Shown here piece after piece: positions 8,927 to 63,539 of a DNA stretch of 64,000 nucleotides. The notes under the pieces are model-generated. The model saw only the letters and a program-made list of their open reading frames with translations. It did no database searches and was not told where the DNA came from. The DNA comes from a bacterium (GTDB lineage: Bacteria > Patescibacteriota > Patescibacteriia > JACPHY01), in contig JAUSKG010000034.1 in NCBI GenBank assembly GCA_030647005.1, positions 4,050 to 68,049 of the forward strand, read 5' to 3'. The position numbers and the translations under genes were made by a program. Each line of letters opens with the position of its first letter. Positions within the stretch are counted from its first letter, which is position 1.

Positions 8927-9020
8927 CACCCCCTCTCGCTCCCCCTCAAGATGAGGGGGGAGGATCAGATAACACCCTTCCGGCTCTCCCCCTCATCTTG
9001 AGGGGAAGTAGGAGGGGGTG
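8927..9020. repeat. inverted pair of a 36-nt dispersed repeat (CACCCCCTCTCGCTCCCCCTCAAGATGAGGGGGAGG); third copy at 56907..56942
   Basis: Copies at 8927..8963 and 8985..9020 (opposite orientation); near-identical copy at 56907..56942. Each has a short internal hairpin CCCTCA-AGA-TGAGGG. Confidence 0.6.
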
Positions 9021-14828: not shown

Positions 14829-15006
14829 GATGATGTGGTCCATGCCCGTTACCGGCGCATCGTCGCTCCCGCATCTGAACGCGAGCGAGCCGCAGGACGA
14901 GCGGGGGCAGAAGGGCTTTGCCCGACCCCCGCGAAGTCCGGAGACGAGCGACCTTGGCGTAGGGAAAAGAGGCCGAGAAAAACCGGGAGGTTTGTCTCGG
15001 AATGTT

Positions 15007-15078
15007 GCCCCCGTAGTTCAATGGATAGAACGCCGGACTTCTAAGCCGGCTATGGGAGTTCGATTCTCTCCGGGGGCA
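15007..15078 (+). tRNA. tRNA-Arg (anticodon TCT)
   Basis: Manual cloverleaf fold: acceptor GCCCCCG/CGGGGGC, D-arm GTTC-AATGGATA-GAAC, anticodon loop CTTCTAA, T-arm GGAGTTCGATTCTCC, discriminator A. No encoded CCA. Confidence 0.85.
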
Positions 15079-15100
15079 TAGGTGACAAGAAACACCGTAC

Positions 15101-15176
15101 GGCGGCCGTAGTTCAATGGTCAGAACACCGGGTTGTGGTCCCGGGGACGGGGGTTCAATTCCCCTCGGCCGCCCCA
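15101..15176 (+). tRNA. tRNA-His (anticodon GTG) with extra 5' G(-1) and encoded CCA
   Basis: G-1 followed by acceptor GCGGCCG/CGGCCGC. Anticodon loop TTGTGGT. T-arm GGGGGTTCAATTCCCCT. Discriminator C then CCA. Confidence 0.85.
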
Positions 15177-15215
15177 GCAAACACTCCGACGTAATGTCGG
15201 AGTGTTTGCTGTTGG
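15177..15215 (+). terminator. intrinsic terminator after the tRNA pair
   Basis: GCAAACACTCCGAC-GTAA-GTCGGAGTGTTTGC 14-bp stem, followed downstream by a T-rich run (TAGAATTTTTTT). Confidence 0.55.
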
Positions 15216-15695
15216 GCGTATAGAATTTTTTTCCCGTCCGTCATTGCGAGTCCGCGAAGTGACGCTCCTGCGTCATCTCGAGTGAGGTTTGACGAGCGAG
15301 AGACCCCACACTATCCATGAACCGTGTGAGATCCTTCGGTCGCAGATGCCCTCAGGACGACATCGGAACGTCGTCTCACCAGCAACAATCCCTTGTATCG
15401 TGTGAGATTGCTTCGCGGACTCGCAATGACGACAGAGGAGGTGGGAAGGTATGAGGTGAGCTGGTACAGCGAGCCGAGAGCAATCGGAATAGTACTGTCG
15501 CAAGCACGTCATTCGTCGAGCGAGTGGTAGATGGAGGCCGCGATGACGGAGGAGACCGCTGTGACAAGATGCCACGCCGCAATTTCGATGAGCATAGGTG
15601 ATGTCTCCATCGTAGTGCGGAGGCATGCAAGCGCACCAGTGGATAGCGGAGAAAAAAAGAGTGCACCCCCAACTTACGTTGGGGGTGCGTGGTAC

Positions 15696-19457: not shown

Positions 19458-20312
19458 ATGCTCACCGTTATCCTCCCAGTACGGAACGAGGAGCCCATCA
19501 TCGCGGCAACCATCGAGCGACTCCTCACGTTCCTCCACGCGACGCTCCACGAGCCGTGGCGCGTTATCGTTGCTGACAATGCCTCGACGGACCGCACGCG
19601 CGATGTCGTGCGGGATGCGATAGTACACGATGGCACGCACCTCGCACTCCTCGAGCTCGATCGCCCGGGCAAGGGCCACGCGGTAATGAGCGCGTGGCGA
19701 AAAGCTGCAAGCGAAACAACAACGGCATGTCATTGCGAGCCGAATCCGAGAGGCGTGGCAATCCCGGTCATATCGGTACAAGGTGAAAGCCGGGTGCACT
19801 GCATGGCCGGGATTGCCACGTCGCGGACTCCTCGCAATGACAAACAAGGGAGTTTTGCAGAGGTCCCTCAAAATATCTTCCTCTTCCTCGATGCCGATCT
19901 CGCCACTGATCTTCGACACATCCCGGAGCTCATCGCCGCGGTGCGCAGTGGCGCGGACATCGCGGCGGCGTCGCGGTACCTCCCGGGATCGCAGACGCAC
20001 CGGAGCACCTTCCGCCACATCATCTCGCGTGCGAACGCGCTCCTCCTCCGGCTCCGGTTTGGACTCCGCATGACCGATGCGCCGTGCGGCGCGAAAGCGG
20101 TGAACGCTCGGGTGGTGCGCGACATCGTCCCGCTCATCCGGGACGACCAGTGGTTCTTTGATACGGAGCTCTGCATCCGTGCGCAGCGCGCCGGTTTCCG
20201 CATCGTTGAGATTCCGATCGCATGGCATGAACCGCGCGAGGGTGTTGCCATCGCGAAAGTCCTCAGGATCATTGTGCGCAACTGCCGGACGATCCTCCGC
20301 TCACCGCTATGA
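19458..20312 (+). CDS. GT2-family glycosyltransferase (polyprenyl-phosphate sugar synthase-like) carrying an in-frame palindromic-element insertion
   Basis: ILPVRNEEPIIAATIERL...IVADNASTDRT...GKGHA...FLFLDADL (DxD motif) is present. About 38 extra residues (TTACHCEPNPRGVAIPVISVQGESRVHCMAGIATSRTPRNDKQ) lie between the GKG and DAD motifs and are encoded by repeat copy 19729..19841. Confidence 0.8.
   Translation: MLTVILPVRNEEPIIAATIERLLTFLHATLHEPWRVIVADNASTDRTRDVVRDAIVHDGTHLALLELDRPGKGHAVMSAWRKAASETTTACHCEPNPRGVAIPVISVQGESRVHCMAGIATSRTPRNDKQGSFAEVPQNIFLFLDADLATDLRHIPELIAAVRSGADIAAASRYLPGSQTHRSTFRHIISRANALLLRLRFGLRMTDAPCGAKAVNARVVRDIVPLIRDDQWFFDTELCIRAQRAGFRIVEIPIAWHEPREGVAIAKVLRIIVRNCRTILRSPL
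19729..19841. repeat. MITE-like palindromic element copy A (GTCATTGCGAG...CTCGCAATGAC), inserted in frame in the GT2 gene
   Basis: Left arm GTCATTGCGAGCCGAATCCGAGAGGCGTGGCAATCCCGGTCAT; core ACAAGGTGAAAGCCGGGTGCACTGC; right arm ATGGCCGGGATTGCCACGTCGCGGACTCCTCGCAATGAC. The host ORF remains open across it. Confidence 0.85.
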
Positions 20313-24675: not shown

Positions 24676-26457
24676 CTAAGGTGCCGCCTCTACCTCGCGC
24701 AGCGGCCCGATGATGCGGTGCGTGATGCGCTCTGCGGGCGTGAAGAGTTCGAGCGGGGGTGCGGGGCCGTCCGCGCCGCGCGCGAGGAGGAACACGCCAT
24801 CGCGCTCCGCAGCAACGCGGAACCCGCCATCCTCGAGAAGACGCGCCAACCGTGCTGGCGCGTCCGCGGCGTAGGGCTTGGTCCAGGAAACGTGGAGGAG
24901 CGCGGTGTACTCCTCCGCCATGTCCGCAATGACTGCGAGGACGTGCGTCGTTTGGGACGGAAGCACATACGGCGCGAACGCGTACTGCTGCTGGCCGAGT
25001 GCAGCGTTCGGGAGGTACGTCGTGCCGCGACGCGCGGCGACGCGCGTGATGACGGACGCGCTCGCGGAGATGACCGCGTTGTCGGGTACTGCGGCGAGGA
25101 GCACATCCGTGGCCTGCGCCTGCACGCGCTGCGTATCCGTTGCACCGAAGACCGCGGCGCGTGCGATGCCTGGGAATGGGCCGAGAAGAAACGCGACGGC
25201 GATATATGCGCTCACGCCAAGCATCATCGCAGCGCGGTGTGGGAGCGGGAACCAGTGTCCGAAGAATGTAGCGACGCGGCCTCCATACCACCCCCCTGTA
25301 TCCCCCCTCTGGAAGAGGGGGGAGCGGAGTGTGGCGAGCACGAGCGCGGGGACAAAGAGGAGCCCGTAGTGCATCTGCACCATGAGGTTGGAGCCGCCGC
25401 TCGCCGTGAGGAGCACCTGGGCCGCCGGCGGCAACGCGAGGAGAAACCACGCGGGCGCGAGGAACGGAAGGAACAAAAACGGAAGAAGAAGCCCGAGTAC
25501 GAAATCGAGATTCGAGAGACGCAGGAGGTGCTGCGCAACGAGCACGGGATGTCCAATGGTGTTCACGATCACCTCACCGAACGACTCGCCGAGCCATCCG
25601 TAGTACACGAGGAACGGGTACGCGCCCGCCGGACTATGTACTGCCGCGATGCGCGTTGCGATGGAGAACCACGCGATGCCCAGGAGGAGAGGTAAGAGCA
25701 TCCAGTACCACTTCTTGCTGTCATTGCGAGGAGTCCGCGACGCGGCAATCCCGGTCATAGGGGTTACGCAACGGTCACGCGCATTGGCCGAGATTGCCAC
25801 GCCTCGCGGACTTGGCTCGCAATGACAGAGGCGTGAGGAGAAGGAGGAAAATCGTAAAACAATCGCCACCACCCCAAACATCATCGCGATGAGCGCGATG
25901 TCCTCCCGTACGAACAGCGCGAGTATGAGAAACAGGATGAACGGCAAGAAGCGACGTTGCAGGAAAAAGTACCCCGCACTCAAAAGGAGAACGGGCGCGA
26001 ACGCGAGCGCGTGGAACTCGAAGAGTGCGGCGTTCCAAAACAGCGGATTCCCGAGCCAGAGCGCGGTGAGGAGCAGTGACCATCGTGACCGACGGAGCAA
26101 CGCGTACACTGGCACCGCAGTGAGTCCGAGCACGAGTGCCTGCACGATGACGAGGAGCCGCGCATCCGACCACACCCGGAAGATCGGTATGAGCAAGAGT
26201 AGCACGGGCTCCACGTGATCACCGAGGTAGCTGTGCTGCTGGATGTCCGACCACCACCCATTGCCGGCCGCGAGGTTCGCGAGCACGTTCGTGTAGATCG
26301 CGAGGTCGAGCCCGTTGTAGAGCAGGTACCGATACTTGAAGAAACCCACCGCGCTCACCGCGAGCGTGAAGAGCGCGATCATGCCCGCGAGCGCGAGGCG
26401 GCGCAACGTGATGGTCATCCATGGAGCATCTGCATCATGTTGATGAGGTTGTGTCAT
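24676..26457 (-). CDS. DUF2079-like polytopic membrane protein with in-frame palindromic-element insertion
   Basis: 593 aa, N-terminal half multi-TM. The internal segment CHCEPSPRGVAISANARDRCVTPMTGIAASRTPRNDSKK is encoded by repeat copy 25720..25826. Confidence 0.5.
   Translation of the reverse strand: MTQPHQHDADAPWMTITLRRLALAGMIALFTLAVSAVGFFKYRYLLYNGLDLAIYTNVLANLAAGNGWWSDIQQHSYLGDHVEPVLLLLIPIFRVWSDARLLVIVQALVLGLTAVPVYALLRRSRWSLLLTALWLGNPLFWNAALFEFHALAFAPVLLLSAGYFFLQRRFLPFILFLILALFVREDIALIAMMFGVVAIVLRFSSFSSRLCHCEPSPRGVAISANARDRCVTPMTGIAASRTPRNDSKKWYWMLLPLLLGIAWFSIATRIAAVHSPAGAYPFLVYYGWLGESFGEVIVNTIGHPVLVAQHLLRLSNLDFVLGLLLPFLFLPFLAPAWFLLALPPAAQVLLTASGGSNLMVQMHYGLLFVPALVLATLRSPLFQRGDTGGWYGGRVATFFGHWFPLPHRAAMMLGVSAYIAVAFLLGPFPGIARAAVFGATDTQRVQAQATDVLLAAVPDNAVISASASVITRVAARRGTTYLPNAALGQQQYAFAPYVLPSQTTHVLAVIADMAEEYTALLHVSWTKPYAADAPARLARLLEDGGFRVAAERDGVFLLARGADGPAPPLELFTPAERITHRIIGPLREVEAAP
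25720..25826. repeat. MITE-like palindromic element copy B, inserted in frame in the DUF2079-like gene
   Basis: GTCATTGCGAGGAGTCCGCGACGCGGCAATCCCGGTCAT ... ATTGGCCGAGATTGCCACGCCTCGCGGACTTGGCTCGCAATGAC. Confidence 0.85.
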
Positions 26458-26499: not shown

Positions 26500-26508
26500 T
26501 ACGGTGCT

Positions 26509-26625
26509 GTCATTGCGAGGAACGAGTCAGCGAGAGACGCGGCAATCCTGGTCGTGCAGGGTACCCGACTTTCACCTTGTACTGGTATAACCGGGATTGC
26601 CGCGTCGCCGACTCCTCGCAATGAC
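26509..26625. repeat. MITE-like palindromic element copy C (intergenic, full length with core)
   Basis: Termini GTCATTGCGAGG...CTCGCAATGAC. The core GTACAAGGTGAAAGTCGGGTACCCTGCAC is present in reverse orientation. Confidence 0.85.
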
Positions 26626-26709
26626 AGAAGTGTGGTTGTGGTGCAGAGTCCATTTTACTGTTAACTGAGCATTAATCTTGATATTCTCCATCAAACTGTC
26701 AAACCCTAT

Positions 26710-30639: not shown

Positions 30640-30734
30640 GTAGCGGAAACCTTTAGGTTTCCATCCGCCTACCCGCGACCAATCCGCCTACAACGAACGG
30701 CCGGATGGAGGCCTGAAGGCCTCCGCTACACCAT
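30640..30734. repeat. structured ~95-nt repeat, copy 1 (two internal hairpins closed by an outer GTAGCGG/CCGCTAC stem); second copy at 55689..55764
   Basis: GTAGCGGAAACC-TTTA-GGTTTCC ... GGAGGCC-TGAA-GGCCTCC-GCTACACCA. The second copy carries the compensatory change GGAGGTC/GACCTCC. Confidence 0.5.
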
Positions 30735-30757
30735 ACAGCTCGCACCTGGTATCGGTA

Positions 30758-30804
30758 TGACCGGGATTGCCGCGTCGCTCGCGGACTCGCTCCTCGCAAT
30801 GACA
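30758..30804. repeat. solo right arm of the MITE-like element (copy D)
   Basis: ATGACCGGGATTGCCGCGTCGCTCGCGGACTCGCTCCTCGCAATGAC. Confidence 0.7.
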
Positions 30805-31441: not shown

Positions 31442-32911
31442 TCACAGCGTCTGCTGAATCTTCTGCGCGGCGAGCTGGAGCGCGCGGTTGATTTCAATGG
31501 TATCCGAATACGCATCGCGGACGAGCTGCACGAACGCCTGCTCCGCACCCTCCGCGTTCTTTCCATGGTACCACGTCCGCGCGGTGAGGAGCTGGTTTGC
31601 GAACACCTTGAGGTCAACGTCCTGCTGCTGCTCGCCCACGAGCGATCGCAGTGCGGTGGGACGCTTGGCCTGCTCGAGGAACCGACGCGTCACCTGCGGC
31701 TGCGTCGTGATGTAGGTGAGGAAGTCCCACGTCTCGTTCGGGGCACTCGTGCGCTCGGAGACCGCCTGGAGCCAGAAATCCGCGTAGGTAATTGCCGCAC
31801 CCTGTCCACCCGGCACGACATCACTCCCGATAACGCTCCCGGTCTGCGGGTCTACGGCGGCGGCAATGTGTGGCACCGCACTCACCGAGAGATTCAACTG
31901 CGGTGCGCGGCTGCGGATGATCGGACGGTGGTAGCTGTAGCCAAAGAAGTACGCCACCTTCCCCTGGAGGAACGCCTCAAGCGCGTCGGGCTGGTCATCG
32001 TTCCACGAGTAGACGAGCTTGTTCGGGTTGGCGAAATCCGCGTAGTACGCGAGCGCGTCTGCCGCCGGCAGCGACGTGCGTCCCGTGATGCCCGCCGGTA
32101 GGAGGTGGAACGACGGCACGCCGCGCGCGATCATCTGCGTCCCGTTCTGCATCATGAGGAGCGAGAGGATATCGAACGACCGCGGGACGTTCCCCATCGT
32201 CCCGAGCGCGACGCCGGACTGGAGGATCGCGCCATCCGCAGCGACGCGCGTGAGACGCGGCACCTGCTGCTGGAGTTCTGCCCAGGTCTTTGCAGGCACC
32301 GGAATACCCCCCGCGTTCAAGAGGTCACGGTTCGCGTAGAGCACGAGCGTATCCACGTAGAGTGGCAGACCGTAGACGGCATCTCCCCCCTCGCGCGGGA
32401 GCACGACATCCGACACGACGACGTCCAGGAAGAGGTCGCGGAGCGTCTGCGGGTTGGGCGTGGTTGTCGCGCGGAGCTCGCCCACCTGCTCCTTGCGCAC
32501 TGTACCCGTGAGCGTGACAAACGGCATGGTGACGACGGACGGCGCGGGGAGGAGCTTCGACTGGTACCGCCGCGTCCACGTCGCGGGAATCGAGATGATG
32601 TCCGGTCCGGCGAAGTCGCCCTCGGAAAGCGCGTCGAGGAGTGCGGTCTCATACTCATCGAGCCGGAGCTTCCGGTAGGTGATCTGCACATGCGGGTGAA
32701 TCTGCCGGTACGCGTCAATGAGCGGGCGCACGTCATCGCTCGTCTCATTGACCCCCCACCAGACAAGATTGACCGGCCGAAGCCGCGCTGCGACCTCCTG
32801 CGGAATCGCGTCCCGCACGCACCCGGCGCCAAGGAACACTACGGACACGGCGATGAGCGCAATCGCACGGAGCCGTGACCAGCTGCCTCTTTGTTCTTGT
32901 CTGTGTTGCAT
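31442..32911 (-). CDS. extracellular solute-binding protein (ABC-transporter SBP family-1-like), probable lipoprotein
   Basis: Start MQHRQEQRGSWSRLRAIALIAVSVVFLGAGC (lipobox). ~490 aa with periplasmic-binding-protein-like composition. The track ORF extends 16 codons into the upstream repeat. Confidence 0.55.
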   Translation of the reverse strand: MQHRQEQRGSWSRLRAIALIAVSVVFLGAGCVRDAIPQEVAARLRPVNLVWWGVNETSDDVRPLIDAYRQIHPHVQITYRKLRLDEYETALLDALSEGDFAGPDIISIPATWTRRYQSKLLPAPSVVTMPFVTLTGTVRKEQVGELRATTTPNPQTLRDLFLDVVVSDVVLPREGGDAVYGLPLYVDTLVLYANRDLLNAGGIPVPAKTWAELQQQVPRLTRVAADGAILQSGVALGTMGNVPRSFDILSLLMMQNGTQMIARGVPSFHLLPAGITGRTSLPAADALAYYADFANPNKLVYSWNDDQPDALEAFLQGKVAYFFGYSYHRPIIRSRAPQLNLSVSAVPHIAAAVDPQTGSVIGSDVVPGGQGAAITYADFWLQAVSERTSAPNETWDFLTYITTQPQVTRRFLEQAKRPTALRSLVGEQQQDVDLKVFANQLLTARTWYHGKNAEGAEQAFVQLVRDAYSDTIEINRALQLAAQKIQQTL

Positions 32912-32920
32912 ACTAAGTGT

Positions 32921-33036
32921 GTCATTGCGAGGAGTCCGCGACGTGGCAATCCCGGTCATCGGCGCACCAATCCGACAACAACAGTATACGCATCCTTCCG
33001 GTGATGACCGGGATTGCTTCGTGGACTCGCAATGAC
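32921..33036. repeat. MITE-like palindromic element copy E (variant core)
   Basis: GTCATTGCGAGGAGTCCGCGACGTGGCAATCCCGGTCAT-CGGCGCACCAATCCGACAACAACAG...-ATGACCGGGATTGCTTCGTGGACTCGCAATGAC. Its core resembles copy G. Confidence 0.85.
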
Positions 33037-33062
33037 ATGGTCATGAGGTTTTGCAAAATGGG

Positions 33063-39705: not shown

Positions 39706-39790
39706 GGTGCCTCCCTTGTTCCTCAGGGAACCTGCGGTAAAGTCCGCAGTGTCAACCGTAGCACATCACACGCGCGGTGTCAATCGTTGC

Positions 39791-40069
39791 GGCATTGCGA
39801 GGGAGTCCACGATTCTCTGTCATTGCGAGGAGTCCGCGACGTGGCAATTCCGGTCATACCAGCACAAAGGTGAAAGCCGGGTGCACTGCATGACCGGGAT
39901 TGCTTCGATCGGGGACTCCTCGCAATGACAGCGATGGAGTGCCATGTTCCTTTCATTGCGAGGAACGAGTCCGCGAGTGACGCGGCAATCCCGGCCATGC
40001 CGTGTACAAGGTGAAAGCCGGGTGCACTGCATGACCGGGATTTCCACGTCGCGGACTCCTCGCAATGAC
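39791..40069. repeat. tandem cluster of MITE-like palindromic elements: partial arm (39791..39817) plus two full copies (39819..39929, 39953..40069)
   Basis: Both full copies have GTCATTGCGAGG...CTCGCAATGAC termini and the core AAGGTGAAAGCCGGGTGCACTGC. They are separated by 23 nt of unique sequence. Confidence 0.85.
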
Positions 40070-40074
40070 AGCGC

Positions 40075-40545
40075 TCACCGAATGCGCAGCGTGGCTTTCA
40101 GCGATTGGAGCCGCGCGTAGAACCCGCTCGTGTGGATGGAATCCAGGCCGAGGCGCACGCTGTCGTAGTGGTGGACCCACTCGTGGAGGAGCGTGTCGAG
40201 GAACGTCTTTGCCGCGAGGAGCTGGCCGCGCACGGCGGTACGATTGGTGATGTATACGTAGCGCGTTGCCGGTTTGTAGTACCCGTACTGCTTGAACACC
40301 GTCCGCCCGCCGCGCTTCTTGTGGTACTGGTGCGCGTCGGATATCGTCACGCGGGCGATGATGTCCATCGCCGCCCCGTCGCACAGCGCGTCGCACAGCT
40401 CTTGTGCGACGCGCTGCCGATGTTCGGTCTCCAGAGGTCCCGTGAGGATCTGCTTCGCGAGTGCGCGCGCCTCCCGTGATGCGCGGAAGTCCACCTCCCG
40501 AATCCGATTGCTCGCCACGTAGTTGCGCTGAGACGCCATACTCAC
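40075..40545 (-). CDS. SprT-like zinc-metalloprotease-domain protein
   Basis: C-terminal region TFLDTLLHEWVHH contains HExxH in a SprT-like context. 156 aa. Confidence 0.45.
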   Translation of the reverse strand: MSMASQRNYVASNRIREVDFRASREARALAKQILTGPLETEHRQRVAQELCDALCDGAAMDIIARVTISDAHQYHKKRGGRTVFKQYGYYKPATRYVYITNRTAVRGQLLAAKTFLDTLLHEWVHHYDSVRLGLDSIHTSGFYARLQSLKATLRIR

Positions 40546-40682
40546 GCGGGCGGGTATAAAACCCGCCCCTACGCCGTTACTTCGGAGGGGAGGAGTTCAT
40601 TCCATCGTCGCGTTATGCGTCTCCGTAGGGGAGGGGTTTACCCCCTCCCATCCGGGCTCCCCCTGAAGCTGGCGCGGGAGCG
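40546..40682 (-). repeat. composite repeat: GCGGGTATAAAACCCGC hairpin + GGGAGGGGGTAAACCCCTCCC hairpin + 26-nt repeat, reverse orientation; overlaps the 3' end of the giant ORF
   Basis: The same ordered pair of hairpins recurs at 60682..60784. The 26-nt element lies at 40661..40682. Confidence 0.5.
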
Positions 40683-43600
40683 TCAAAGAACGCGCGATGT
40701 CGGCCCATGCGGATGGGATGATGGCGGTGATGCCGACTGATTCCGGTGCGTCTGCGACCGCTACGACATCCGTCTCGCGGGCATCGGAGGTTTTGGGGGA
40801 TGACGGCTCCACGATGATCTGCACGGTGTCCGCCGCTGATGCGCCACCGTTGTCCACGACTTCGAGGATGACGGACGTCGTTCCAATCGGCGCGGCGTAC
40901 TCCAGCTGCGCGCCGGAGCCGATGTACTCCCGACCGACGCGCCAGCGCAAGCGCGCGATGGACCCGTCTGCATCACGCGAGCGCGATCCATCGAGGGTGA
41001 CGGTGACCACTCCGTCGCCATCGTCATCGCGCACGGTTTGATCTTCGCCCGCGTGTGCAACCGGCATCGTATTGAGCCCAACCATGCTGCGCCAGGCACT
41101 CAGCACCGCGCGGTTGTTCAGCTCATCGAGCTCCGCGATGGCATCGTTCGGGTCAACGGTGAGCTCGAGGATCGCCGCGCCTTCCGGTGGGGTGGTCGCG
41201 TAGACGCCGAGCGGCCGCGGGAGGCCGACGGTGTCCGGAATCGCGGACGTCATCTGGAACCGCCAGTCCGGTTCGAGGGCATCCTGCGTGCGCAGGTAGT
41301 GCTGCCCAAGCGGCAGCCCGCTCCCACCCCGCCACTGGAGCCGCCAGGTGAACGCGGGACTGATCACACCACCGCGATTCGTGAGGATGATGCGGAGCGC
41401 GCCGCTCTCGTCCACGCTGAGGTCGAGGATGGCAAGATCCACCGGACGATCCGGCTCGAACACCGCGAGCGTCGTGCGGGCCTGTGCCTCCCGCCCGTCG
41501 GCATCGCGTACCTGCACGGTGGCGGCAATGAGCCCGCCGGCATCGAACCGACGCTGGATGGTCGGCGAAGCACCAACGACGCCGTCTGCAAAACGCCAGG
41601 AGACCGTGTACGGCTTGCGACCGCCGGTGATCGCCGCGTGGTAGGTTGCGGAGAGCGGCGCGGGACCGGATGCCGGATCAACCGTCGCCGTCACCGCGAG
41701 CGGCGCGACGCGCACCACCGGCGTGCGCTCCGCGACTGGCGCGATATCCGGTGTGATGACTCCTGCCTCCTTCGGGCTGCTCGGTTCCTCAGGCACATCC
41801 GTCACCAGCTCGGGCTCGTCAACGATGGTCGGCTCGCGTGGAGGCACTGCGGGTTCCGGTATGCGACCCTCGGCCTCCTCGGGAATGGTGATCGTGACGT
41901 CATTGTCGGACTCGTTCACCTCAACAATTGCGTTTGGCCCATCCACGGTGATGAGGAGCTCCACCGCCCCGCTCGGCACGGTGCGCAGGAATTGCGGGAA
42001 GGTCTGCCCCGCGCCGCTCCCACGGTGCGGGAAGAACGTCGCGCCGAGGTCACCTGCGAAGGTAATCGTCTGTGGATCTCCGGGCGCGAACGCTTGCGCG
42101 GGCGCATCGTGCCAGAACCGCACCGCACCTACGGACAGCCCAAGCGTGTCGGTCCAGGTGAACCAGTACGACAACGGTACGCCGATGTCACCGATTGCCG
42201 CGCCATCGTTCACGACCGTGACGGTGACGGCGCGGGCGTCGTCCGCATACGTCGCGGACACGGCGCGAAGGTTGGGGAGCGGCGGCTGCTCCGCCTGCAC
42301 ACTCGCCACCGGAACCGGGAGCGTCGCGACGTTGTTGAGCTCATGCTGCTCGGCAATGCGACCATCACCGTCCGCGACGATGCGCAGGTGTGTGGCGCCC
42401 GCTGGCGGGTGCGCGAGGAATACCGCGAGATTCTCCGTCCGATGTCGCGTGAAGATGAGGAGGAACCGCTCGCGGTAGGTGACGGAGAGTAGGCCGGTCC
42501 CGAGCGACTTCGCATCGCCTGCGGCGAGCGCGTGGAGGGTGAGTGTACGCACCGCACCAAGAGGAACCACACGGTCATCCACCCACGCGAGCTGGAGCGT
42601 GGACGACGGTGCCTCCGCGTCCCCGTCATTGCGCACGACGAACGCGAGCGTACCATCTTCCTCCCACGCTGCGGAGGACAGCAGGAGGTCCGGGAGTGCG
42701 GCCGCACCTACCTGCGTCGCGCCAGTGAGCGCACCGAGTATCGTGCCGACGGTATCCCGCGCGCGCGATGCGATGCGCGTCGCCGTCTCCGCGGGCAGAC
42801 GCGCAATCGTGAGGGTCACCTGTTTGCAGTTGTTCGACTCATCGGACTCCGCGATCTCCTTATTGACATCTATGCACACCTCGAACGCGTGGTTGCCGGA
42901 CGTGGCCTCCCAAGCGTCGGCCCACGTGATGGTTCCTTCCGCCGCCTTCGCGAGCGTCGGGAGTGCCTCCGTGGACGGGAAGGCATCCGGAACACCGTCA
43001 TTGTTCAAATCCACAACCAACCACGCAGTCGTCGCCGCAACATCCGCCGATCCGCTATTCCGGATCGTCGCCGTAAACGACACCGCCTGCCCGGTCATCG
43101 GCACGGCAGGTGACGCAACGACACGCACCATCACGAGGTCCGGCCCGATGGTGACCGGTTCTGGTTCGGGTTCCGGCTCGGGTTCTGGTTCCGGTTCCGG
43201 CTCTGGTGCCACGACCGGGCGCGTGAGCACGCGGGCATTATTCTGCTCGTTGGCTTCTGTCACCGCGTCCTTCGGATCCACCACGATGCGCAACTGCATC
43301 GCGTGCACGGGAGGCGCGGCGATGAAGTTTGCGTAGTATCCGGTCCAACCAATGGTCCCCAGGTCTTTCGCCGCGCCGCGGGAGAGCCCCATGAAGTCCC
43401 GCGTCTCTTCCGCAAGAACGGTGCCATCACGATCGAGCCATGCAATCGTCGCACTCGTACCCACCGTGCGCACGGCACCGTCATTACGCACGACGAGTCG
43501 TAGTCCCGCATCCGTCAGTGCGGCATCGGCAATGGCGAGATCGGCGACCCCGAGCGGCCATCGGTCCGACGTAAGACGATTGTTGTCTTCGCGCTCCTCT

Positions 43601-46600
43601 GCGATCCGGTTGTCCGGGTCCACGATGAGCTCGATACCTGCGGCACCTGTTGGCGGATCGAGCACGTACTCACCAAACGGCCGCGGTGTCCCCGTCCGAT
43701 CACCGACGTCGCTCATCATGGCGTAGAAGCTCCCCGCGCGCTGCGCATCGTGCGGCTGGCGGTACGGTGGTACAGCAATGCGCGCACCGGAGGCGTCCAA
43801 CCACGCGAGCTCCCACGTGTACGCCGGCGCGGGAACTGTTCCCTCCACTTGCATGTTCACGATGAGTCGCTCGTCGTCGGTCACGCTGATGAGATTCGCC
43901 TTGAGATCCGACAGCGGCGCACCGGCAAAGGGAACATCGAAGGTATTGTTCGATTCGTCCGCTTCCGTCAGCTTGCCCGCCGGATCAACCGTAAACCGAA
44001 TCTGCGTTGCACCCGCGGGCGGGTCCTTGAAGAACTGCACCTCGGGGCCGTAGCCGGAGTCCTTGTACGCGAAGAGGAGCTGGTAGCGGTGGAGAAACTG
44101 CTTCTGGAGACCGTCACCGCGACCGATGTACGGCGCGCCAAGGAGCGTACCGGAAGCATCGGCCCACTGCATAGACCAGAAGAACACGGGTGATGCAATC
44201 TCGCCGACGTTGCGGACATCGAGTCCATAGATATCACCGTCGGCATTCGTGAAGAGCTTGGGGACACCGGTGATCGTGAGATCCGGCAGCGCGCTCCGGT
44301 CCGGACGATCGAAGGTCACGCGGTTGTTCTCCTCGTTCTTCTCCGCGATTGCATGATCCGGATCCATCGTCACGCGGAGCGTGCGCGCCGCATCCGGCGG
44401 CGATGCGAGCAGCTCGCCCGCGCGACCCACACCGCGTTCGATGATGATCGAACGGCCACTGCGCGAGGAGAGCTGCGGCCCGTCCACGCGGACCGACGCG
44501 CCCACGACCGTGCCTTCCGCATCGAGCCACGCGAACTCCCACACGAATGCCTGGACGTCCTGCTTCCCCTTGTTCCAGAGCGTCGCCGAGAAGCTGTCCA
44601 TGCCCAGCGCAGGTTCGCCGAACTCGAGATCGGGCTGCTGCACGATGACGAGTGCCGCGCGCGCGGTGTTATTCTGCTCATCGTGCTCGCGGAGCACATG
44701 CTCAGGATCAGCGGTGATCTCCAGCCCGCTCGCGTTCGCTGGCGGATCGGCGAGGAGGCCCGCCAAGGGTGTCTGCTCCTGTGCGAGACCGGTCGCGGTC
44801 CACAGAGGTGACGTGAGCGTGGTGGTTGCTGCGGTGAACGTCCGCGATGCACCAGATGCGAGCGCGGCGGTGTCCAACCAGTACCGACCGTACGAACCGG
44901 CAAAGTGCACTGCGATGCGGATGCGTCCCTCACGATCTCCGGCGGGCGCGTCGCCGACATTCGTCACCGTGAACGTCGCGCCGTCGCGCGTGACGGCAAC
45001 GTCGCGCACAACGAGGTCTGCGAGTTTCCGTCGCGCAGCAACGTCCGCGCTGTTGTTCTCCTCCGAGGACTCCGCGATGGCATTGCCCGCATCAATCGTC
45101 ACGCGGAGTGCCGCAGCCCCCGTCGGCGACAACGCGAGCGAGCGCTCATCGTACCCGTACCCGTCGTAGCGCAAGGTGCGAACTTCGGTGGCCCCGGGGC
45201 TGAGGAAGCCCGTCCCGCGGGTGACGGTCGGCGTGCCGAGTACCCCGCCGGCGGCATCCACCCACTGGAGCGTGAGCGTGGCGGGCGTGGCGCGCGCTGC
45301 ACCACGATTTGCGATGGTGATACGGAACGTGTCGCCGCTCGCCTCGATGCCGGTTGCTGCGGCAACGAGCTGGAGGTCCGGCAGCGGGAGCGGCAGGGTG
45401 ACGATGTTGTGCTCCTCATCCCGCTCGGGAATTGCATCCGTCACATCTGCCGTGATGCGGAGTGCGGTTGCGGTGCTCGGTCGCTGCTGGAGGAACTGCG
45501 CGAGCGATTGGCTCGATGGTTGGGGACGATGATTGGCGTAGGCGAAGGAGAGCATCGTATCGGCCGCGCTCATGCGCGCGGATGTTCCAGGTGCAATGGG
45601 GAGCATCGTGAGGACGCGCTCGCCGCCGGGAATGGGAGTGCCGCTGCCGTCCAGCCAGAGGAGGCCGACGGAGACATCACCGCCCGTGATGCCCGGCCCA
45701 TCGTTCACCACCGCGAACGTGAGCGATGCATCCACGAGGTGCGCGTCCGCAATGCGGAGATCGGCGCGCGGACGTTCGAGGAGCACCGCGTTGTTCCCGT
45801 CGTTCGTCTCGCGAATCACATGGTCCGGATCGAGCGTGAGGTGGAGGTGCGTCGCATCGCGCGGTGGCATCCGGAGCACCTCGGTGAGGGCGATCGTCGA
45901 GACCTGCGTGCGACCCCACCACCCGCCCCGGAACTCGTACGACACCTGCACATCACGCGCATGGAGTGTGATGCGTCCACCCGCGACGATCGGCGCGAGG
46001 TCCACGAAGTAGCGCTGGCCCGTCGCCTGCCGATCTGCCGTGCGCCACACGATGTCCGCGCGCACGCGCGCGCCATCCGTTGCGCCTGCGCCGTCATTCT
46101 GCACGGTGAAGACGAGATCGTCCGCGGTGAGCGATGCACCCACGATGGTGAGGTCTGCGAGTGCGGATGGTTGCGGCGGGGGCGGCGGGAGCGCGGGTGC
46201 GTCGAGCACCGCGATGTTGTTCAACTCATCGGACTCGTCGAGCGTCCCTGCGCTGTCGAGTGCGACCCGAAGGAATGCCGCGCCATCCGGTCGGTCGGTG
46301 AGGAACGCGGCGAGCGACTGTGTCTCCATGCTCCGGAGCAGACCGCTCCGGTAGGATACCGTGGACGTTGCCGAAGAGATGCCGGTCGTCGCACCGGCAT
46401 CGAGTGCGGGGTACGCGATGGAGCGTGGGGAACCGAGCGGTTGGCGTTCCCCGTCCAACCACTGGAATGCGACGTGGAATGCACTCCCGATGCGCGTCGT
46501 GCCGATGTTGGAGACCCGTGCCGCAAACGCACCGGCATCACCGCCGACAAAACCCGCTTCCGTGATGGCGAGGTCGGGGAGCGGGAGGTGCACGACCGCC

Positions 46601-48618
46601 GCGTTGTCGTCTCGTGTCTCCTCGAGGAGTACCGCACCCGCATCGAGCGCGATGCGAAACTGCGTCGCGCCCGCCGGACGGTTGACGAGGTACGTCGCGA
46701 GCGGTTCATCGTGTGCAGTCGAGAACATGCGACCGGTGGTGTAGGACGCGACGGCGTGCGCGGAGCGTAGGGTGACCCGCTCGAACGGCGCAACGTGTTC
46801 CACCGCAATGGAGCGCGGCGCACCGAGGCGCCCACCCGCAGCGTCGAGCCACTGGAGCTCGATGGCAAACGGCGTCATGATGACGGTCGCGCTGGTGTTG
46901 TGGTACGAAAAGGTGAGCGCGCCATCGGCAATGGTGGGTGCGATGATCTGGAGATTGGGGAGTGCAAACGGGATCGCAAGCGTATTGTTCTCCTCGTTCG
47001 CCTCGGCAATCGCACCTCCTTCGTCAAGGACCATCTGGAGCAGGGTTGCATCCGCCGGACGATCGGCGAGAAACGCGCTCAGCAACAACGGCTCCGCGCG
47101 CTTGAACATGCGCCCACGCGTCCGCTCGACGGTCGTTGTTGCCGCGTCCACAAACGTGGAGGAGCCGGCAGCACTGCCGACGCGCACCATCGCAACGGCA
47201 TCCTGCACCGCACCCTCCGCGTTCACCCATTGGAACAGTACTTGGTACGCATCAGCAATCGTACCGCCGACGTTGCGGTACACCATCATCGCACGTTCCG
47301 GCGTGATGTCGTAGGACTCAGCAATGAGATCGGGCTGTGGTTCGGGTTCCGGCTCAGACACATCCTCTGGTGGTGGCGCAATCGGCTCGCCATCCTCAGG
47401 AGGGAGGAGCACGACGTCATCGGGCGTTTCCAAAAGAGGTGGCGACACCACAACCGGCACGTCTTCAGGCGCGGCAACGATCTCCGGCCCGCAGCTGCAA
47501 CAGAACAACCCATCGCTGCCATTGCGCGTCGTGATGGTGTGCAGGGTGCCACACGCCTGCGCACACTGATCGTAGGAGGTAAACTCGTCCGGTTCGCACG
47601 CAACGACGCACGCGTAGCACGTCGCCGCGGTCGTCGCGTCACGAACGCAACGCTCGTTCGCGTCACCGCACATTCCACCACAAGTATCATTGGTGAATCC
47701 CGGGCACGATGGTGCTTGTGGCACTTCCGATGGCGACACCGGAACGGGAGTGACGGTCGGCGTACCGCTTGCCGGACGCAATCGCGCAGCGACCCGTCCA
47801 AAAAAACCACGCGGCGGATCGGGAGCCGGCACGGCAACACCGACGAATGCCGGGGCTGCTGCTTCCACTCCCGGGGCCGCAACCGCATCGGGGACGGATG
47901 GTGCCGGAGCAAAAGCATCCTGTTCTGGCACGCCCGAGACAACAGGGATCGTGCGTTCGAGCACTCGCTCGGGAGCGGGTGTCACCACCGGCACCGCATC
48001 AACTCCACCACTCGATACGCGCGCAGGCGGAGCGAACGGAGCTGGCGTGGAGACGGGGACGGGAACCGGCGCGGGTGGCGCGGTCGCGGTGGGTGCGGAT
48101 TCCGGTTGCGCAAGAGCCGGTGTTGGCACGGATGCGAGACGATCGAGAATCTGTTCGGCGATGACCGAGCGATCCGCATCGCCGCCCTGTTCCGGTGCGG
48201 TGAGCTGCGCCGCGATGGACGTAAACACCCGGGTCTGCTGCGCGAGCTGCGTCGTCACCGCCGCATCAATCGCATCGGCGGTGCCATCCACTCCCGATAC
48301 ATCGGCCTGCTCCTGCGCGAGCTGCACATATCGCTGCGCGATCACCTGCACGACGAGCACACGCTCCGGTGCGCGCTCCGCGATCACCTGCGCCTCCTCC
48401 ACCTTCTCCTGTGCGTAGCGGAGCGCACGCGCGGCCTTCTTCTCCGGATTGATCGTCAGCGCGAGCGCGACGCGCTCGAACGTGAGATCGAAGAAATAAA
48501 AACGGCTCGCCGGCGTGAGGCCGGCAGCCGCGTGTGCTGCGCTCGGGACGAGCAATACGAACGCTGCGATGAACGTCAGCACTGCCTGTCGCGCGCGCAC
48601 GACGGTGAGCTTATCCAT
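40597..48618 (-). CDS. giant surface protein (~2670 aa): DUF5667-like N-terminus, Pro-rich and Cys-rich segments, about 14 CARDB-like repeats, (PE)n linker, PKD-like domains
   Basis: Start MDKLTVVRARQAVLTFIAAFVLLVPSAAHAA (signal/TM) then TINPEKKAARALRYAQEKVEEAQ (DUF5667-like). The Cys cluster is CPGFTNDTCGGMCGDANERC...CYACVVACEPDE. ~110-aa repeats each carry VxNxGxxxA...W.D..G patterns. A PEPEPEPEPEPEPEP linker follows. The PKD-like domain includes TATVDPASGPAPLSATYHAAITGGRKPYTVSWRFADG. The last ~30 codons read through dispersed repeats, so the true stop may be earlier. Confidence 0.75.
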   Translation of the reverse strand: MDKLTVVRARQAVLTFIAAFVLLVPSAAHAAAGLTPASRFYFFDLTFERVALALTINPEKKAARALRYAQEKVEEAQVIAERAPERVLVVQVIAQRYVQLAQEQADVSGVDGTADAIDAAVTTQLAQQTRVFTSIAAQLTAPEQGGDADRSVIAEQILDRLASVPTPALAQPESAPTATAPPAPVPVPVSTPAPFAPPARVSSGGVDAVPVVTPAPERVLERTIPVVSGVPEQDAFAPAPSVPDAVAAPGVEAAAPAFVGVAVPAPDPPRGFFGRVAARLRPASGTPTVTPVPVSPSEVPQAPSCPGFTNDTCGGMCGDANERCVRDATTAATCYACVVACEPDEFTSYDQCAQACGTLHTITTRNGSDGLFCCSCGPEIVAAPEDVPVVVSPPLLETPDDVVLLPPEDGEPIAPPPEDVSEPEPEPQPDLIAESYDITPERAMMVYRNVGGTIADAYQVLFQWVNAEGAVQDAVAMVRVGSAAGSSTFVDAATTTVERTRGRMFKRAEPLLLSAFLADRPADATLLQMVLDEGGAIAEANEENNTLAIPFALPNLQIIAPTIADGALTFSYHNTSATVIMTPFAIELQWLDAAGGRLGAPRSIAVEHVAPFERVTLRSAHAVASYTTGRMFSTAHDEPLATYLVNRPAGATQFRIALDAGAVLLEETRDDNAAVVHLPLPDLAITEAGFVGGDAGAFAARVSNIGTTRIGSAFHVAFQWLDGERQPLGSPRSIAYPALDAGATTGISSATSTVSYRSGLLRSMETQSLAAFLTDRPDGAAFLRVALDSAGTLDESDELNNIAVLDAPALPPPPPQPSALADLTIVGASLTADDLVFTVQNDGAGATDGARVRADIVWRTADRQATGQRYFVDLAPIVAGGRITLHARDVQVSYEFRGGWWGRTQVSTIALTEVLRMPPRDATHLHLTLDPDHVIRETNDGNNAVLLERPRADLRIADAHLVDASLTFAVVNDGPGITGGDVSVGLLWLDGSGTPIPGGERVLTMLPIAPGTSARMSAADTMLSFAYANHRPQPSSQSLAQFLQQRPSTATALRITADVTDAIPERDEEHNIVTLPLPLPDLQLVAAATGIEASGDTFRITIANRGAARATPATLTLQWVDAAGGVLGTPTVTRGTGFLSPGATEVRTLRYDGYGYDERSLALSPTGAAALRVTIDAGNAIAESSEENNSADVAARRKLADLVVRDVAVTRDGATFTVTNVGDAPAGDREGRIRIAVHFAGSYGRYWLDTAALASGASRTFTAATTTLTSPLWTATGLAQEQTPLAGLLADPPANASGLEITADPEHVLREHDEQNNTARAALVIVQQPDLEFGEPALGMDSFSATLWNKGKQDVQAFVWEFAWLDAEGTVVGASVRVDGPQLSSRSGRSIIIERGVGRAGELLASPPDAARTLRVTMDPDHAIAEKNEENNRVTFDRPDRSALPDLTITGVPKLFTNADGDIYGLDVRNVGEIASPVFFWSMQWADASGTLLGAPYIGRGDGLQKQFLHRYQLLFAYKDSGYGPEVQFFKDPPAGATQIRFTVDPAGKLTEADESNNTFDVPFAGAPLSDLKANLISVTDDERLIVNMQVEGTVPAPAYTWELAWLDASGARIAVPPYRQPHDAQRAGSFYAMMSDVGDRTGTPRPFGEYVLDPPTGAAGIELIVDPDNRIAEEREDNNRLTSDRWPLGVADLAIADAALTDAGLRLVVRNDGAVRTVGTSATIAWLDRDGTVLAEETRDFMGLSRGAAKDLGTIGWTGYYANFIAAPPVHAMQLRIVVDPKDAVTEANEQNNARVLTRPVVAPEPEPEPEPEPEPEPEPVTIGPDLVMVRVVASPAVPMTGQAVSFTATIRNSGSADVAATTAWLVVDLNNDGVPDAFPSTEALPTLAKAAEGTITWADAWEATSGNHAFEVCIDVNKEIAESDESNNCKQVTLTIARLPAETATRIASRARDTVGTILGALTGATQVGAAALPDLLLSSAAWEEDGTLAFVVRNDGDAEAPSSTLQLAWVDDRVVPLGAVRTLTLHALAAGDAKSLGTGLLSVTYRERFLLIFTRHRTENLAVFLAHPPAGATHLRIVADGDGRIAEQHELNNVATLPVPVASVQAEQPPLPNLRAVSATYADDARAVTVTVVNDGAAIGDIGVPLSYWFTWTDTLGLSVGAVRFWHDAPAQAFAPGDPQTITFAGDLGATFFPHRGSGAGQTFPQFLRTVPSGAVELLITVDGPNAIVEVNESDNDVTITIPEEAEGRIPEPAVPPREPTIVDEPELVTDVPEEPSSPKEAGVITPDIAPVAERTPVVRVAPLAVTATVDPASGPAPLSATYHAAITGGRKPYTVSWRFADGVVGASPTIQRRFDAGGLIAATVQVRDADGREAQARTTLAVFEPDRPVDLAILDLSVDESGALRIILTNRGGVISPAFTWRLQWRGGSGLPLGQHYLRTQDALEPDWRFQMTSAIPDTVGLPRPLGVYATTPPEGAAILELTVDPNDAIAELDELNNRAVLSAWRSMVGLNTMPVAHAGEDQTVRDDDGDGVVTVTLDGSRSRDADGSIARLRWRVGREYIGSGAQLEYAAPIGTTSVILEVVDNGGASAADTVQIIVEPSSPKTSDARETDVVAVADAPESVGITAIIPSAWADIARSLTLPRQLQGEPGWEGVNPSPTETHNATME

Positions 48619-48637
48619 AGCGTATTTTTCATCTCCA

Positions 48638-49468
48638 TCATAGCACACGCGAGAGAAGAGCGGCGATAATCGTGAGCATGCCGATGACGATGACGAACAC
48701 GCCGAGGTTCACGCGACGGGTGAACGCCATGAACGCGTGGATCGTCGCAATCCCGAACGCAAACGAGGTGAGGAGGCCCCAGAGCAGCGTCGCATCGAAC
48801 GGTGCGCCGTTGCGGAGCAGCACGAGGTTCCCCGCAAACACGATGGGGATGGACATGAGGAACGACAGGCGGAGCGCCTGCTGCCCATCGAACTTCCGGA
48901 GGAGGAGCGCCATGATCGTGAGGCCGGAGCGCGAGAGCCCGGGGAGCACCGCAAATCCCTGCATGACCCCGAGGAGCACCGTGTCGAACAGCGTGATCCG
49001 TTGACGCGGCACCGCCGCGGCCTGCCGCTTGCGCGCGGACAGGAGCATGGCGCCCGTGGCGATGAGGAACACCCCGATCGCACCCACGATCACCCGAATC
49101 GTCGCCGCGCCGCTCGTGGAGCCAATCACCTGGATCGCGCGGCCAAACCCCTCGAGGAGCACGAGCCCGAGCGCACCGGAGATGAGCGTTGTCCCGATGA
49201 GGAACCAGAGCAGGTCTCGAGACGCGCCTCGCTCCCGACGCGTAATGACACGCCCGAGCTCCCGCAGGAGCTCGCCGACATCCCGCCGGAAGTACACGAT
49301 GGCCGCAACCATCGTCCCAAAGTGGAGCATGAGTGCCACGTCAATGGACTCCCGCACATCCGTGTGGCCAAAGAGCACCGTGCGCGCGAGCACGATCATC
49401 CCGTCCGAGGAGATCGTGATCCACTCCGTCATTCCCTGAATGGCACCGAGCACGAGTGCTTCGAGCAT
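48638..49468 (-). CDS. uppP: undecaprenyl-diphosphate phosphatase (BacA/UppP)
   Basis: GAIQGMTEWITISSDGM and PGLSRSG motifs are present. 276 aa with 8 TM helices. Confidence 0.9.
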   Translation of the reverse strand: MLEALVLGAIQGMTEWITISSDGMIVLARTVLFGHTDVRESIDVALMLHFGTMVAAIVYFRRDVGELLRELGRVITRRERGASRDLLWFLIGTTLISGALGLVLLEGFGRAIQVIGSTSGAATIRVIVGAIGVFLIATGAMLLSARKRQAAAVPRQRITLFDTVLLGVMQGFAVLPGLSRSGLTIMALLLRKFDGQQALRLSFLMSIPIVFAGNLVLLRNGAPFDATLLWGLLTSFAFGIATIHAFMAFTRRVNLGVFVIVIGMLTIIAALLSRVL

Positions 49469-57133: not shown

Positions 57134-57134
57134 A

Positions 57135-60681: not shown

Positions 60682-60784
60682 GGGAGGGGGTAAACCCCTC
60701 CCCTACGGGGTACGCGCAACGCAAGGAGGATGAGATGCCCAATCGCCACGGGAATCGCGTAGGGGCGGGTTTTATACCCGCCCG
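60682..60784 (+). repeat. composite hairpin repeat copy (GGGAGGGGGTAAACCCCTCCCCTACGG ... GCGTAGGGGCGGGTTTTATACCCGCCCG)
   Basis: Same two hairpins in the same order as the reverse-oriented copy at 40546..40650. Confidence 0.5.
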
Positions 60785-63373: not shown

Positions 63374-63386
63374 AAAACAATCCTGT

Positions 63387-63520
63387 GTCATTGCGAACCG
63401 AGTCCGCGAGGTGTGGCAATCCCGGTCATCAGCAGACCCATCCGACAACAACGGCACGCGCATTCGTCCTGTGATGACCGGGATTGCCGCGTCGCTCGCG
63501 GACTCACTCCTCGCAATGAC
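63387..63520. repeat. MITE-like palindromic element copy G (variant core, as copy E)
   Basis: GTCATTGCGAACCGAGTCCGCGAGGTGTGGCAATCCCGGTCAT-CAGCAGACCCATCCGACAACAACGG...-ATGACCGGGATTGCCGCGTCGCTCGCGGACTCACTCCTCGCAATGAC. Confidence 0.85.
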
Positions 63521-63539
63521 AGAAGCAAGAGGATTCGCT

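Follow-up and report, generated by a model that had tools for sequence, protein, structure and literature searches.

The 64-kb stretch analysed here (64,000 nucleotides of contig JAUSKG010000034.1, hereafter the window) comes from an uncultured Uhrbacteria-like bacterium of the Candidate Phyla Radiation (CPR). It contains a gene for a family 2 glycosyltransferase (GT2) whose open reading frame (ORF) runs through a palindromic element. The initial annotation had placed this palindrome at 19729-19841 (113 nt); the palindrome is real, but its limits are 19728-19842, which makes it 115 nt long. It had also compared the situation to that of the Rickettsia palindromic elements (RPEs), which Ogata et al. 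reportedly described in 2000 as selfish DNA lying in frame within genes. This comparison holds, as the element too is a palindromic repeat that lies in frame in coding genes at positions compatible with the fold. The parts of the locus are as follows.

19458-20312, + strand: GT2 host gene, polyprenyl-phosphate-type glycosyltransferase, 284 aa (PF00535, E 8e-18)
19728-19739, + strand: left terminus of the element (T5), TGTCATTGCGAG, with a GTCATT leader; the same 12-mer bounds elements in many phyla
19754-19771, + strand: inner-left arm, 18 nt, CGTGGCAATCCCGGTCAT, which holds the box CGTGGCAATC
19803-19820, + strand: inner-right arm, 18 nt, ATGGCCGGGATTGCCACG, which holds the box GATTGCCACG
19831-19842, + strand: right terminus of the element (T3), CTCGCAATGACA

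The element is a near-perfect inverted repeat, in which complementarity is 100% between the outer arms, TGTCATTGCGAG and CTCGCAATGACA, and 94% between the inner 18-nt arms, CGTGGCAATCCCGGTCAT and ATGGCCGGGATTGCCACG. It folds into a single hairpin both as RNA (dG -75 kcal/mol, z -8.4) and as DNA (dG -39.7 kcal/mol, z -8.2), and in neither case was any of 200 shuffled sequences as stable. In its architecture it is an ORF-less inverted dimer of two arms around a variable loop. Each arm consists of (T/C)GTCATTGCGAG followed, after a short stretch of variable sequence, by CGNNGCAATC, and the motif that runs from T5 to the inner box is TGTCATTGCGAG...CGAAGCAATC. All three frames that enter through a terminus are open (CHCE, VIAS and SLRG), as are two of the three that leave through one (LAMT and RND), the third exit frame holding a TGA; per element, about 2.1 of the 6 frames are open. 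In the frame of the GT2 host the element is read as CHCEPNPRGVAIPVISVQGESRVHCMAGIATSRTPRND. At gathering thresholds Rfam returned three tRNAs and nothing else for the whole window, and a permissive scan over the element gave only sub-threshold look-alikes of microRNA precursors, the mark of a generic long hairpin. These scans of window and element revealed no known ribozyme, intron or riboswitch.

We confirmed that the 115-nt repeat is inserted in frame in a surface loop, predicted to be disordered, that immediately precedes the DxD motif of the GT2 enzyme. As had been proposed, the ORF stays open across the element, and the match to PF00535 is split into two stretches, one on either side. The protein is identical to the NCBI protein P0001, from a metagenome-assembled genome (MAG), and its nearest relatives, at 44-63% identity, belong to Candidatus Uhrbacteria and are mostly about 240 aa long, compared to 284 aa here. 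The orthologues are syntenic and share an upstream gene of 536-540 aa. Where the window protein carries TACHCEPNPRGVAIPVISVQGESRVHCMAGIATSRTPRNDKQ, most of them have a short linker in the alignment. The spacing between the GKG and DxD motifs reflects this, with 74 residues between GKG and DAD in the window protein, compared to 21 in 70 of 100 homologues; the Uhrbacteria orthologues that lack an insert have 23-33. The normal spacing had initially been put at ~15 residues and is instead about 21, but the point that it is enlarged here, by ~38 extra residues, stands. All 46 of the 46 columns that are invariant in an alignment with 23 orthologues are kept in the window protein, including D145 and D147.

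The AlphaFold model of the protein (mean pLDDT 85, pTM 0.81) is predicted with pLDDT >90 on either side of the insert. Residues 93-124 (pLDDT <50) form an unstructured excursion between the helix 72-90 and the strand 140-144, which leads into the DAD motif. A structural search with the model gave ArnC, dolichyl-phosphate mannose synthase (DPMS) and GtrB as the top matches (E 1e-14 to 1e-10), in agreement with the proposed DPMS-like character of the enzyme, and the host gene combines a GT-A fold, a DxD motif and the PF00535 match. We call the segment an insertion because of the insert-free orthologues, the conserved synteny and the AlphaFold model taken together. The orthologue alignment had been set beforehand as a check, and most Uhrbacteria orthologues indeed lack the segment. 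A palindromic repeat present in several copies accounts exactly for the coding of the additional residues. In an independent Logan assembly of run SRR13727527, both gene/element junctions are matched at 100% identity, and the contigs break inside the element, one ending at 19757 and another starting at 19815. On the model, ~38 disordered residues are added to GT2 ahead of the DxD strand, and the predicted enzyme probably stays active; a predicted tryptic peptide across the insert junction of its product would be, for example, GVAIPVISVQGESR.

The same GT2 loop holds other inserts in five orthologues. Those for which the DNA was at hand are hairpins of two families unrelated to the 115-nt element, one C-rich (CACCCCCTCTCNCTCC) and one GTAG-tagged (GTAGGGGCGG...CCGCCC). 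With the element itself, this means that three hairpin families independently struck the same permissive loop.

A nucleotide profile (nhmmer) found seven full copies of the element in the window, besides a half copy and a diverged one. With up to 2 mismatches allowed, the window has 26 occurrences of the 12-mer terminus, compared to 7.3 +/- 2.8 expected, and none of 100 shuffles reached 26. The copies and the second host gene are listed below.

19728-19842: copy in the GT2 gene, 115 nt (nhmmer E 3e-33)
24676-26457, - strand: DUF2079 membrane protein, 593 aa, second host gene (PF09852, E 7e-49), carrying the copy 25719-25827
25719-25827: copy in the DUF2079 gene, 109 nt, in frame and read CHCEPSPRGVAIS...GIAASRTPRND, the same element frame as in the GT2 copy
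26508-26626: copy, 119 nt, upstream of the DUF2079 gene; loop type A, inverted
30721-30804: half copy, right arm and terminus only, intergenic (E 3e-11)
32920-33037: copy, 118 nt, overlapping the annotated start of the solute-binding-protein ORF 31442-32959 (- strand); loop type B
39818-39930: copy, 113 nt, intergenic, first member of a tandem pair; loop type A
39951-40070: copy, 120 nt, intergenic, second member of the tandem pair; loop type A
63386-63521: copy, 136 nt, between a bPH_2-domain ORF and ruvB; loop type B
15239-15431: diverged relative, 193 nt, with CGTCATTGCGAG termini (CGTC-type), downstream of tRNA-Arg and tRNA-His

The seven full copies are 71-88% identical, and whole loops are common within two subfamilies, A and B, which argues that in this genome the elements were copied as units, loops included. 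Most copies are intergenic. The initial annotation had counted two further in-frame cases in the window, one of which is the copy in DUF2079. Judged by its orthologues P0245, P0246 and P0249, which lack the element segment, it is a second clean internal in-frame insertion. The other case, likely 32920-33037, overlaps its ORF only at the N-terminus. The ORF 31442-32959 (- strand) has a more plausible start 16 codons downstream of the annotated one, and this copy probably lies in the 5' leader of the solute-binding-protein gene rather than being an internal insertion.

The surroundings of some copies may be recorded here. The tandem pair 39818-39930/39951-40070 is preceded by a terminal fragment at 39790-39815 and lies directly downstream of the ORF 40075-40545 (- strand); the whole cluster, 39790-40070, resembles small clusters of elements found beside GIY-YIG genes elsewhere, which are described below. 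The diverged copy lies ~60 nt downstream of tRNA-Arg(TCT)/tRNA-His(GTG) and follows a perfect hairpin with 16-nt arms at 15175-15211 (region 15006-15431). A T4SS_pilin-domain protein (PF18895; 30822-31445, - strand) adjoins the half copy.

The repeat family extends well beyond the window. In species-representative genomes, the pattern TGTCATTGCGAG-N80-110-CTCGCAATGACA matched at least 120 stretches across many phyla; among the matches listed are Chloroflexota, many CPR lineages, Bacteroidota, Firmicutes, Proteobacteria, Cyanobacteria, Planctomycetota and others. The family layout is, in order, T5, an optional small GC-rich hairpin, the inner-left box CGNNGCAATC, a variable loop, the inner-right box GATTGCNNCG, an optional small hairpin and T3. 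The inner boxes GCAATC/GATTGC recur with the termini across phyla, and TGTC-ATTGC...GCAAT-C is invariant both in the window copies and across phyla. A target-site duplication was not found in 141 copies: 19 of them have flanks identical over 1 nt, 10 over 2 nt and 2 over 3 nt, the level expected by chance. These copies also showed no conserved target motif, only a weak preference for C at -1 and G at +1 that extends the palindrome.

Comparison of the host sequences suggests that tolerated in-frame insertion is general for this family and extends to other lineages. The DUF2079 orthologue that shares a contig with the GT2 orthologue P0007 has a 129-nt copy in a different loop, read LSLRG...PRND. 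Another lies in frame in UvrB on a 4.4-kb contig from a MAG labelled Gammaproteobacteria (L029), and on the same contig (2528-3790, + strand) a copy connects TruB with a cytidylyltransferase-like ORF in a single open frame. UvrB and TruB are host genes also reported for Rickettsia RPEs. Further in-frame copies are found in an MnmA domain of a Candidatus Staskawiczbacteria genome (L089), in a pyridoxal-phosphate-dependent enzyme of Candidatus Magasanikbacteria (L099) and in Wzy- and SNase-domain proteins. Among the candidates embedded in genes, 14/17 leave the element in the ...RND frame. A profile of the insert peptide, which at 41 positions has low power, gave 3 matches among 1.84 billion representative proteins, one of them to itself. 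Full-text searches of the literature for GTCATTGCGAG or CTCGCAATGAC returned unrelated primer matches only, and the repeat class is very widespread and apparently unnamed.

Among 123 loci with elements, the sole protein family recurring beside them is a 95-aa single-domain GIY-YIG protein (PF01541), which is bracketed by the termini; no transposase family, Y1 transposases included, recurs in these loci. We assembled a test set of 80 metagenome loci picked solely for encoding this GIY-YIG subfamily, and more than 8,000 candidate nuclease homologues were scored. Termini are present in 59/80 loci. They lie within about 160 bp upstream of the gene in 52 of the 73 loci where this could be assessed and no more than about 150 bp downstream of it in 54 of 75; 47/80 loci have them on both sides. 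Complete units, in which T5, the inner-left box, the ORF, the inner-right box and T3 follow one another, occur in 17/80 loci and measure 358-442 bp, with the inner-right box starting 0-12 nt past the stop codon. The density of termini in the GIY-YIG loci is 1.33 per kb, compared to about 0.004 per kb in a hand-made estimate for random sequence. The ~115-nt elements have the architecture of the 358-442-bp unit minus its ORF and therefore look like ORF-less derivatives of it. For the nuclease itself, the nearest solved structures are UPF0213 proteins, with an E of 1e-7 only, and a scan against NCBIfam gave only weak, generic GIY-YIG matches. In some of the loci (L092 25-199 and 701-879; L167; L174) the termini are multiple or nested, three T5 preceding three T3 at a spacing of about 22-25 nt, which suggests repeated self-insertion or a staggered duplication of ends.

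A comparable association is that of the NTS/SRM hairpin repeats (NTS = CGTCATTCCCGCGMAVGCGGGAATCYRG), which flank ssnA (Chenal et al. 2025, PMC11893778). SsnA is a 94-aa GIY-YIG protein that binds the repeat as single-stranded DNA (ssDNA) only and cuts a few nucleotides upstream; the nuclease of this system belongs to CDD cd10448 (GIY-YIG_unchar_3), the Ssn clade, and the repeat units are 20-50 nt long, each its own hairpin (PMC11893778). The same study, which covers mainly Pseudomonadati, likens NTS-ssnA-NTS to an insertion sequence, its mobility being merely speculated (PMC11893778). The arms of the element share with NTS a (C/T)GTCATT leader and an AATC-pyrimidine tail; they have the oriented leader, GTC + ATT before the palindrome, and the C straight after it, and the nucleotides critical for SsnA (PMC11893778) map onto the invariant TC-ATTGC...GCAAT-C positions of the elements. 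Both systems occur in many phyla and in hundreds of copies and, at the level of the superfamily and outside the window, both have inverted repeats on either side of a 94-95-aa single-domain GIY-YIG gene, an IS-like order of repeat, gene and repeat common to the two. The catalytic residues of our nuclease, Y8/Y19/E66, are spaced identically to Y6/Y17/E64 of SsnA, and it is by size (95 vs 94 aa) and this Tyr/Tyr/Glu spacing only that we liken the two proteins.

However, the two systems also differ. The core of the element is ATTGC...GCAAT with a long variable insert, compared to ATTCCCGC...GCGGGAAT in NTS, and the stable structure of the window copies pairs the two ends of an element, not the halves of a single unit. 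In the superfamily as a whole, about 25-27% of the units fold strongly with an NTS-like geometry (NTS control, z -3.8 to -5.5). Searched with a variant pattern, HGTCATTGCGAG-N0-50-CGNNGCAAYC, the window gives 12 matches and the GIY-YIG loci 153, in 51/80 of them. The hosts of the elements are CPR bacteria, Chloroflexota, Cyanobacteria, Bacteroidota and Firmicutes, and neither ORF-less dimers as elements nor in-frame insertions are described in the NTS/SRM study (PMC11893778).

Our preferred explanation, to which we give a probability of roughly 0.7, is that a small mobile hairpin element gave rise to this copy, which lacks an ORF, is non-autonomous and inserted in a permissive surface loop of a GT2 enzyme predicted to be functional. 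The GIY-YIG protein would be its cognate partner, recognising the GTCATT...AATC motifs on ssDNA as SsnA does NTS, and would promote the copying of both ORF-bearing and ORF-less forms. The insertion in GT2 would owe its survival to a length that preserves the reading frame and to the absence of stop codons from the frame in use, and purifying selection would clear most intragenic insertions, leaving those in tolerant loops. ORF-bearing and ORF-less forms with identical ends are the signature of an autonomous/non-autonomous pair, which makes the hypothesis of mobility a testable one.

Several observations speak against this explanation. We know of no GIY-YIG nuclease with strand-transfer activity, so that a transposition mechanism is putative. 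A gene of this GIY-YIG family is absent from the window and its known flanks, as judged with profiles built from 4 and from 113 sequences, and the criterion for choosing the 80 GIY-YIG loci was similarity to four proteins which themselves stem from element-bearing loci. The published SRM pattern, HGTCWYN(0-2)YYVSBRHN(0-5)WNVSBRGN(0-2)RNCYNB, has 0 matches in the window and 1 match in the 80 loci, and the half-units of the window copies, unlike NTS, do not fold alone (median z +0.47, none < -2). At the locus itself, the inner 57 nt of the element, which set the frame, are supported by the MAG assembly alone; an empty-site allele was not found, and the exact insertion boundaries are thus undefined. 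Finally, the lengths of intragenic copies (115, 109, 129, 105, 106, 110 and 134), checked for the sign of a fixed duplication length, leave no constant remainder modulo 3.

The resemblance to RPEs extends beyond their position within genes. RPE sequences end in CGTC, and RPE-4 and RPE-6 have been placed among the CGTC-tagged repetitive extragenic palindromic sequences (REPs) (Di Nocera et al. 2013, PMC3733652). These REPs form dimers, sit in frame in genes such as uvrB and truB and "lack a dedicated transposase", no RAYT being flanked by CGTC repeats (PMC3733652). Like RPEs, our elements are palindromic, often dimeric and in frame in unrelated genes, where they add tens of residues at tolerated sites, and the family is also found in uvrB and truB (L029). 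With CGTC-tagged REPs they share the dimer architecture and a terminal (C/T)GTC tag, the (C/T)GTCATT leader being common to the element, to that class and to NTS/SRM. They differ from RPEs in phylum (Patescibacteria/CPR), in core sequence and in their size of ~115 nt with a variable loop, and from CGTC-tagged REPs in the tag: the seven full window copies have TGTC, and 15239-15431 alone has CGTC. Four element peptides had no NCBIfam match at E <=10, in a release assumed to hold the TIGRFAM RPE models. Judged by these comparisons, no RPE family includes the element at the level of sequence. The likeness may stem from kinship. The type of event, a selfish repeat in frame, is already known from Rickettsia; what is new is the repeat class and the pairing of ORF-bearing and ORF-less forms, related to SRM/Ssn and to CGTC-REP/RPE.

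REPINs are inverted REP doublets that form a hairpin of ~100 nt, are non-autonomous and lack a target-site duplication; the repeats flank a single-copy RAYT gene (Bertels and Rainey 2011; Nunvar et al. 2010; cited in PMC3733652 and PMC8266576). The element is similar in that it is an inverted doublet with a long hairpin of about 100 nt, lacks a target-site duplication and has a partner gene flanked by repeats, and GTAG-tagged hairpins of REP type coexist with it in the window. We nevertheless consider it improbable that a RAYT (HUH/Y1) transposase mobilises it as a REPIN-type doublet and that the GIY-YIG association is incidental. Its tag is TGTC or CGTC, the GTAG tag being absent, and its partner is a GIY-YIG nuclease and not an HUH/Y1 transposase. 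According to Di Nocera et al. (PMC3733652) no RAYT is flanked by CGTC repeats, and Y1 transposases are not among the recurrent neighbours of the elements, whereas termini enclose the GIY-YIG gene in 47/80 loci.

It is just as improbable that the GT2 enzyme is inactivated, or that its in-frame state is an accident of assembly and the open frame fortuitous. The chance of an open frame is not negligible, at roughly one third multiplied by the stop-free fraction (about 2.1/6 frames open); the frame-setting inner 57 nt come from one assembly and related copies vary in length, and a hairpin of -75 kcal/mol in the mRNA could impede translation. Against this, however, a second in-frame case lies 5 kb away and both junctions were verified independently. 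Furthermore, all 46 invariant GT2 positions are kept, the fold is confidently predicted on both sides, and the same loop tolerates other inserts in five orthologues.

A further known class is that of the MITEs, miniature transposable elements with inverted repeats. Like Correia, ERIC, RUP and Nezha, the element is small and multi-copy with terminal inverted repeats, which are perfect over 12 nt, and it shows occasional in-frame fusion, a behaviour documented for bacterial MITEs, which can form in-frame fusions with host ORFs (review PMC10969869). A classical MITE would be a deletion derivative of an insertion sequence, moved in trans by a DDE transposase that recognises the 12-nt repeats, and here this is hardly likely. 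The lack of a target-site duplication or target motif, with flanks at chance level in the 141 copies, argues against a DDE-type MITE; no transposase family recurs in the 123 loci and no parent insertion sequence with a DDE transposase was found in our searches, the only gene found between the same termini being that of the 95-aa GIY-YIG nuclease. Co-option of the insert, with the hairpin regulating translation or mRNA stability or the peptide adding a property to the enzyme under positive selection, seems very improbable: different hairpins have repeatedly been captured by one and the same loop of this surface-glycan enzyme across related lineages, and REPs are often argued to act as RNA elements (PMC3733652), but the loop inserts are unrelated in sequence and predicted to be disordered, which fits tolerance better than function, most copies are intergenic, and no insert is conserved across orthologues.

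For GT2 itself the consequences of the insertion, as we prefer to read it, are modest, the predicted enzyme being probably active with an extra disordered loop. More broadly, the locus points to a large sister class of repeats that escapes the published SRM pattern and spans CPR bacteria, Chloroflexota, Cyanobacteria, Bacteroidota and Firmicutes. It also indicates that in the small, gene-dense genomes of CPR bacteria several hairpin families repeatedly land in the same protein loops; such landings may help explain unusual insertions in CPR proteins, and they complicate annotation and assembly. We tentatively raise a wider possibility, which at present we regard as rather doubtful. The (T/C)GTCATT-tagged hairpin repeats (the GTCATTGCGAG class and, by extension, NTS/SRM and the CGTC-type REP/RPE) might be the ends of a distinct class of mobile elements that are extremely small, at about 360-440 bp, and whose sole gene would encode the 95-aa GIY-YIG single-strand nuclease and not a transposase. 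The ORF-less dimers would then be its non-autonomous forms, and in gene-dense CPR genomes the elements would recurrently give proteins new disordered loops, striking the same permissive sites again and again.

The two unrelated hairpin families are also represented in the window. Identical GTAG-tagged 25-nt hairpins, GTAGGGGCGGGTTTTATACCCGCCC, of the RAYT-associated REP class lie in intergenic positions at 60759-60783 (+ strand) and 40548-40572 (- strand), and a relative sits in frame in the GT2 loop of orthologue P0007 (L002 3313-3338). The third family, with C-/G-rich arms (CACCCCCTCTCNCTCC...GGAG..GGGGGTG), has an intergenic copy at 8927-9020 and a short partial copy at 56907-56941, within the ORF 56489-57196 (- strand); a relative sits in the GT2 loop of orthologue P0003 (L001 3261-3276). 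Logan contigs of the same organism end in hairpin repeats (L205, end at ~8956; L207, end at 19757; L206, start at 19815). As the elements are break-points of assembly, intragenic copies are expected to be often missed, or the genes split, in short-read assemblies.

Two other genes of the window deserve mention. The Wzy_C (O-antigen-ligase-like) gene at 55773-57196 (- strand) appears to be split into the overlapping frames 56489-57196 and 55773-56957; a frameshift, a pseudogene or an error of assembly close to a hairpin remnant could account for this. A giant ORF at 40597-48648 (- strand), of 2,683 aa, consists of many modules of ~100 residues ending in '...E.NE.NN...' and presumably encodes a surface protein typical of CPR bacteria.

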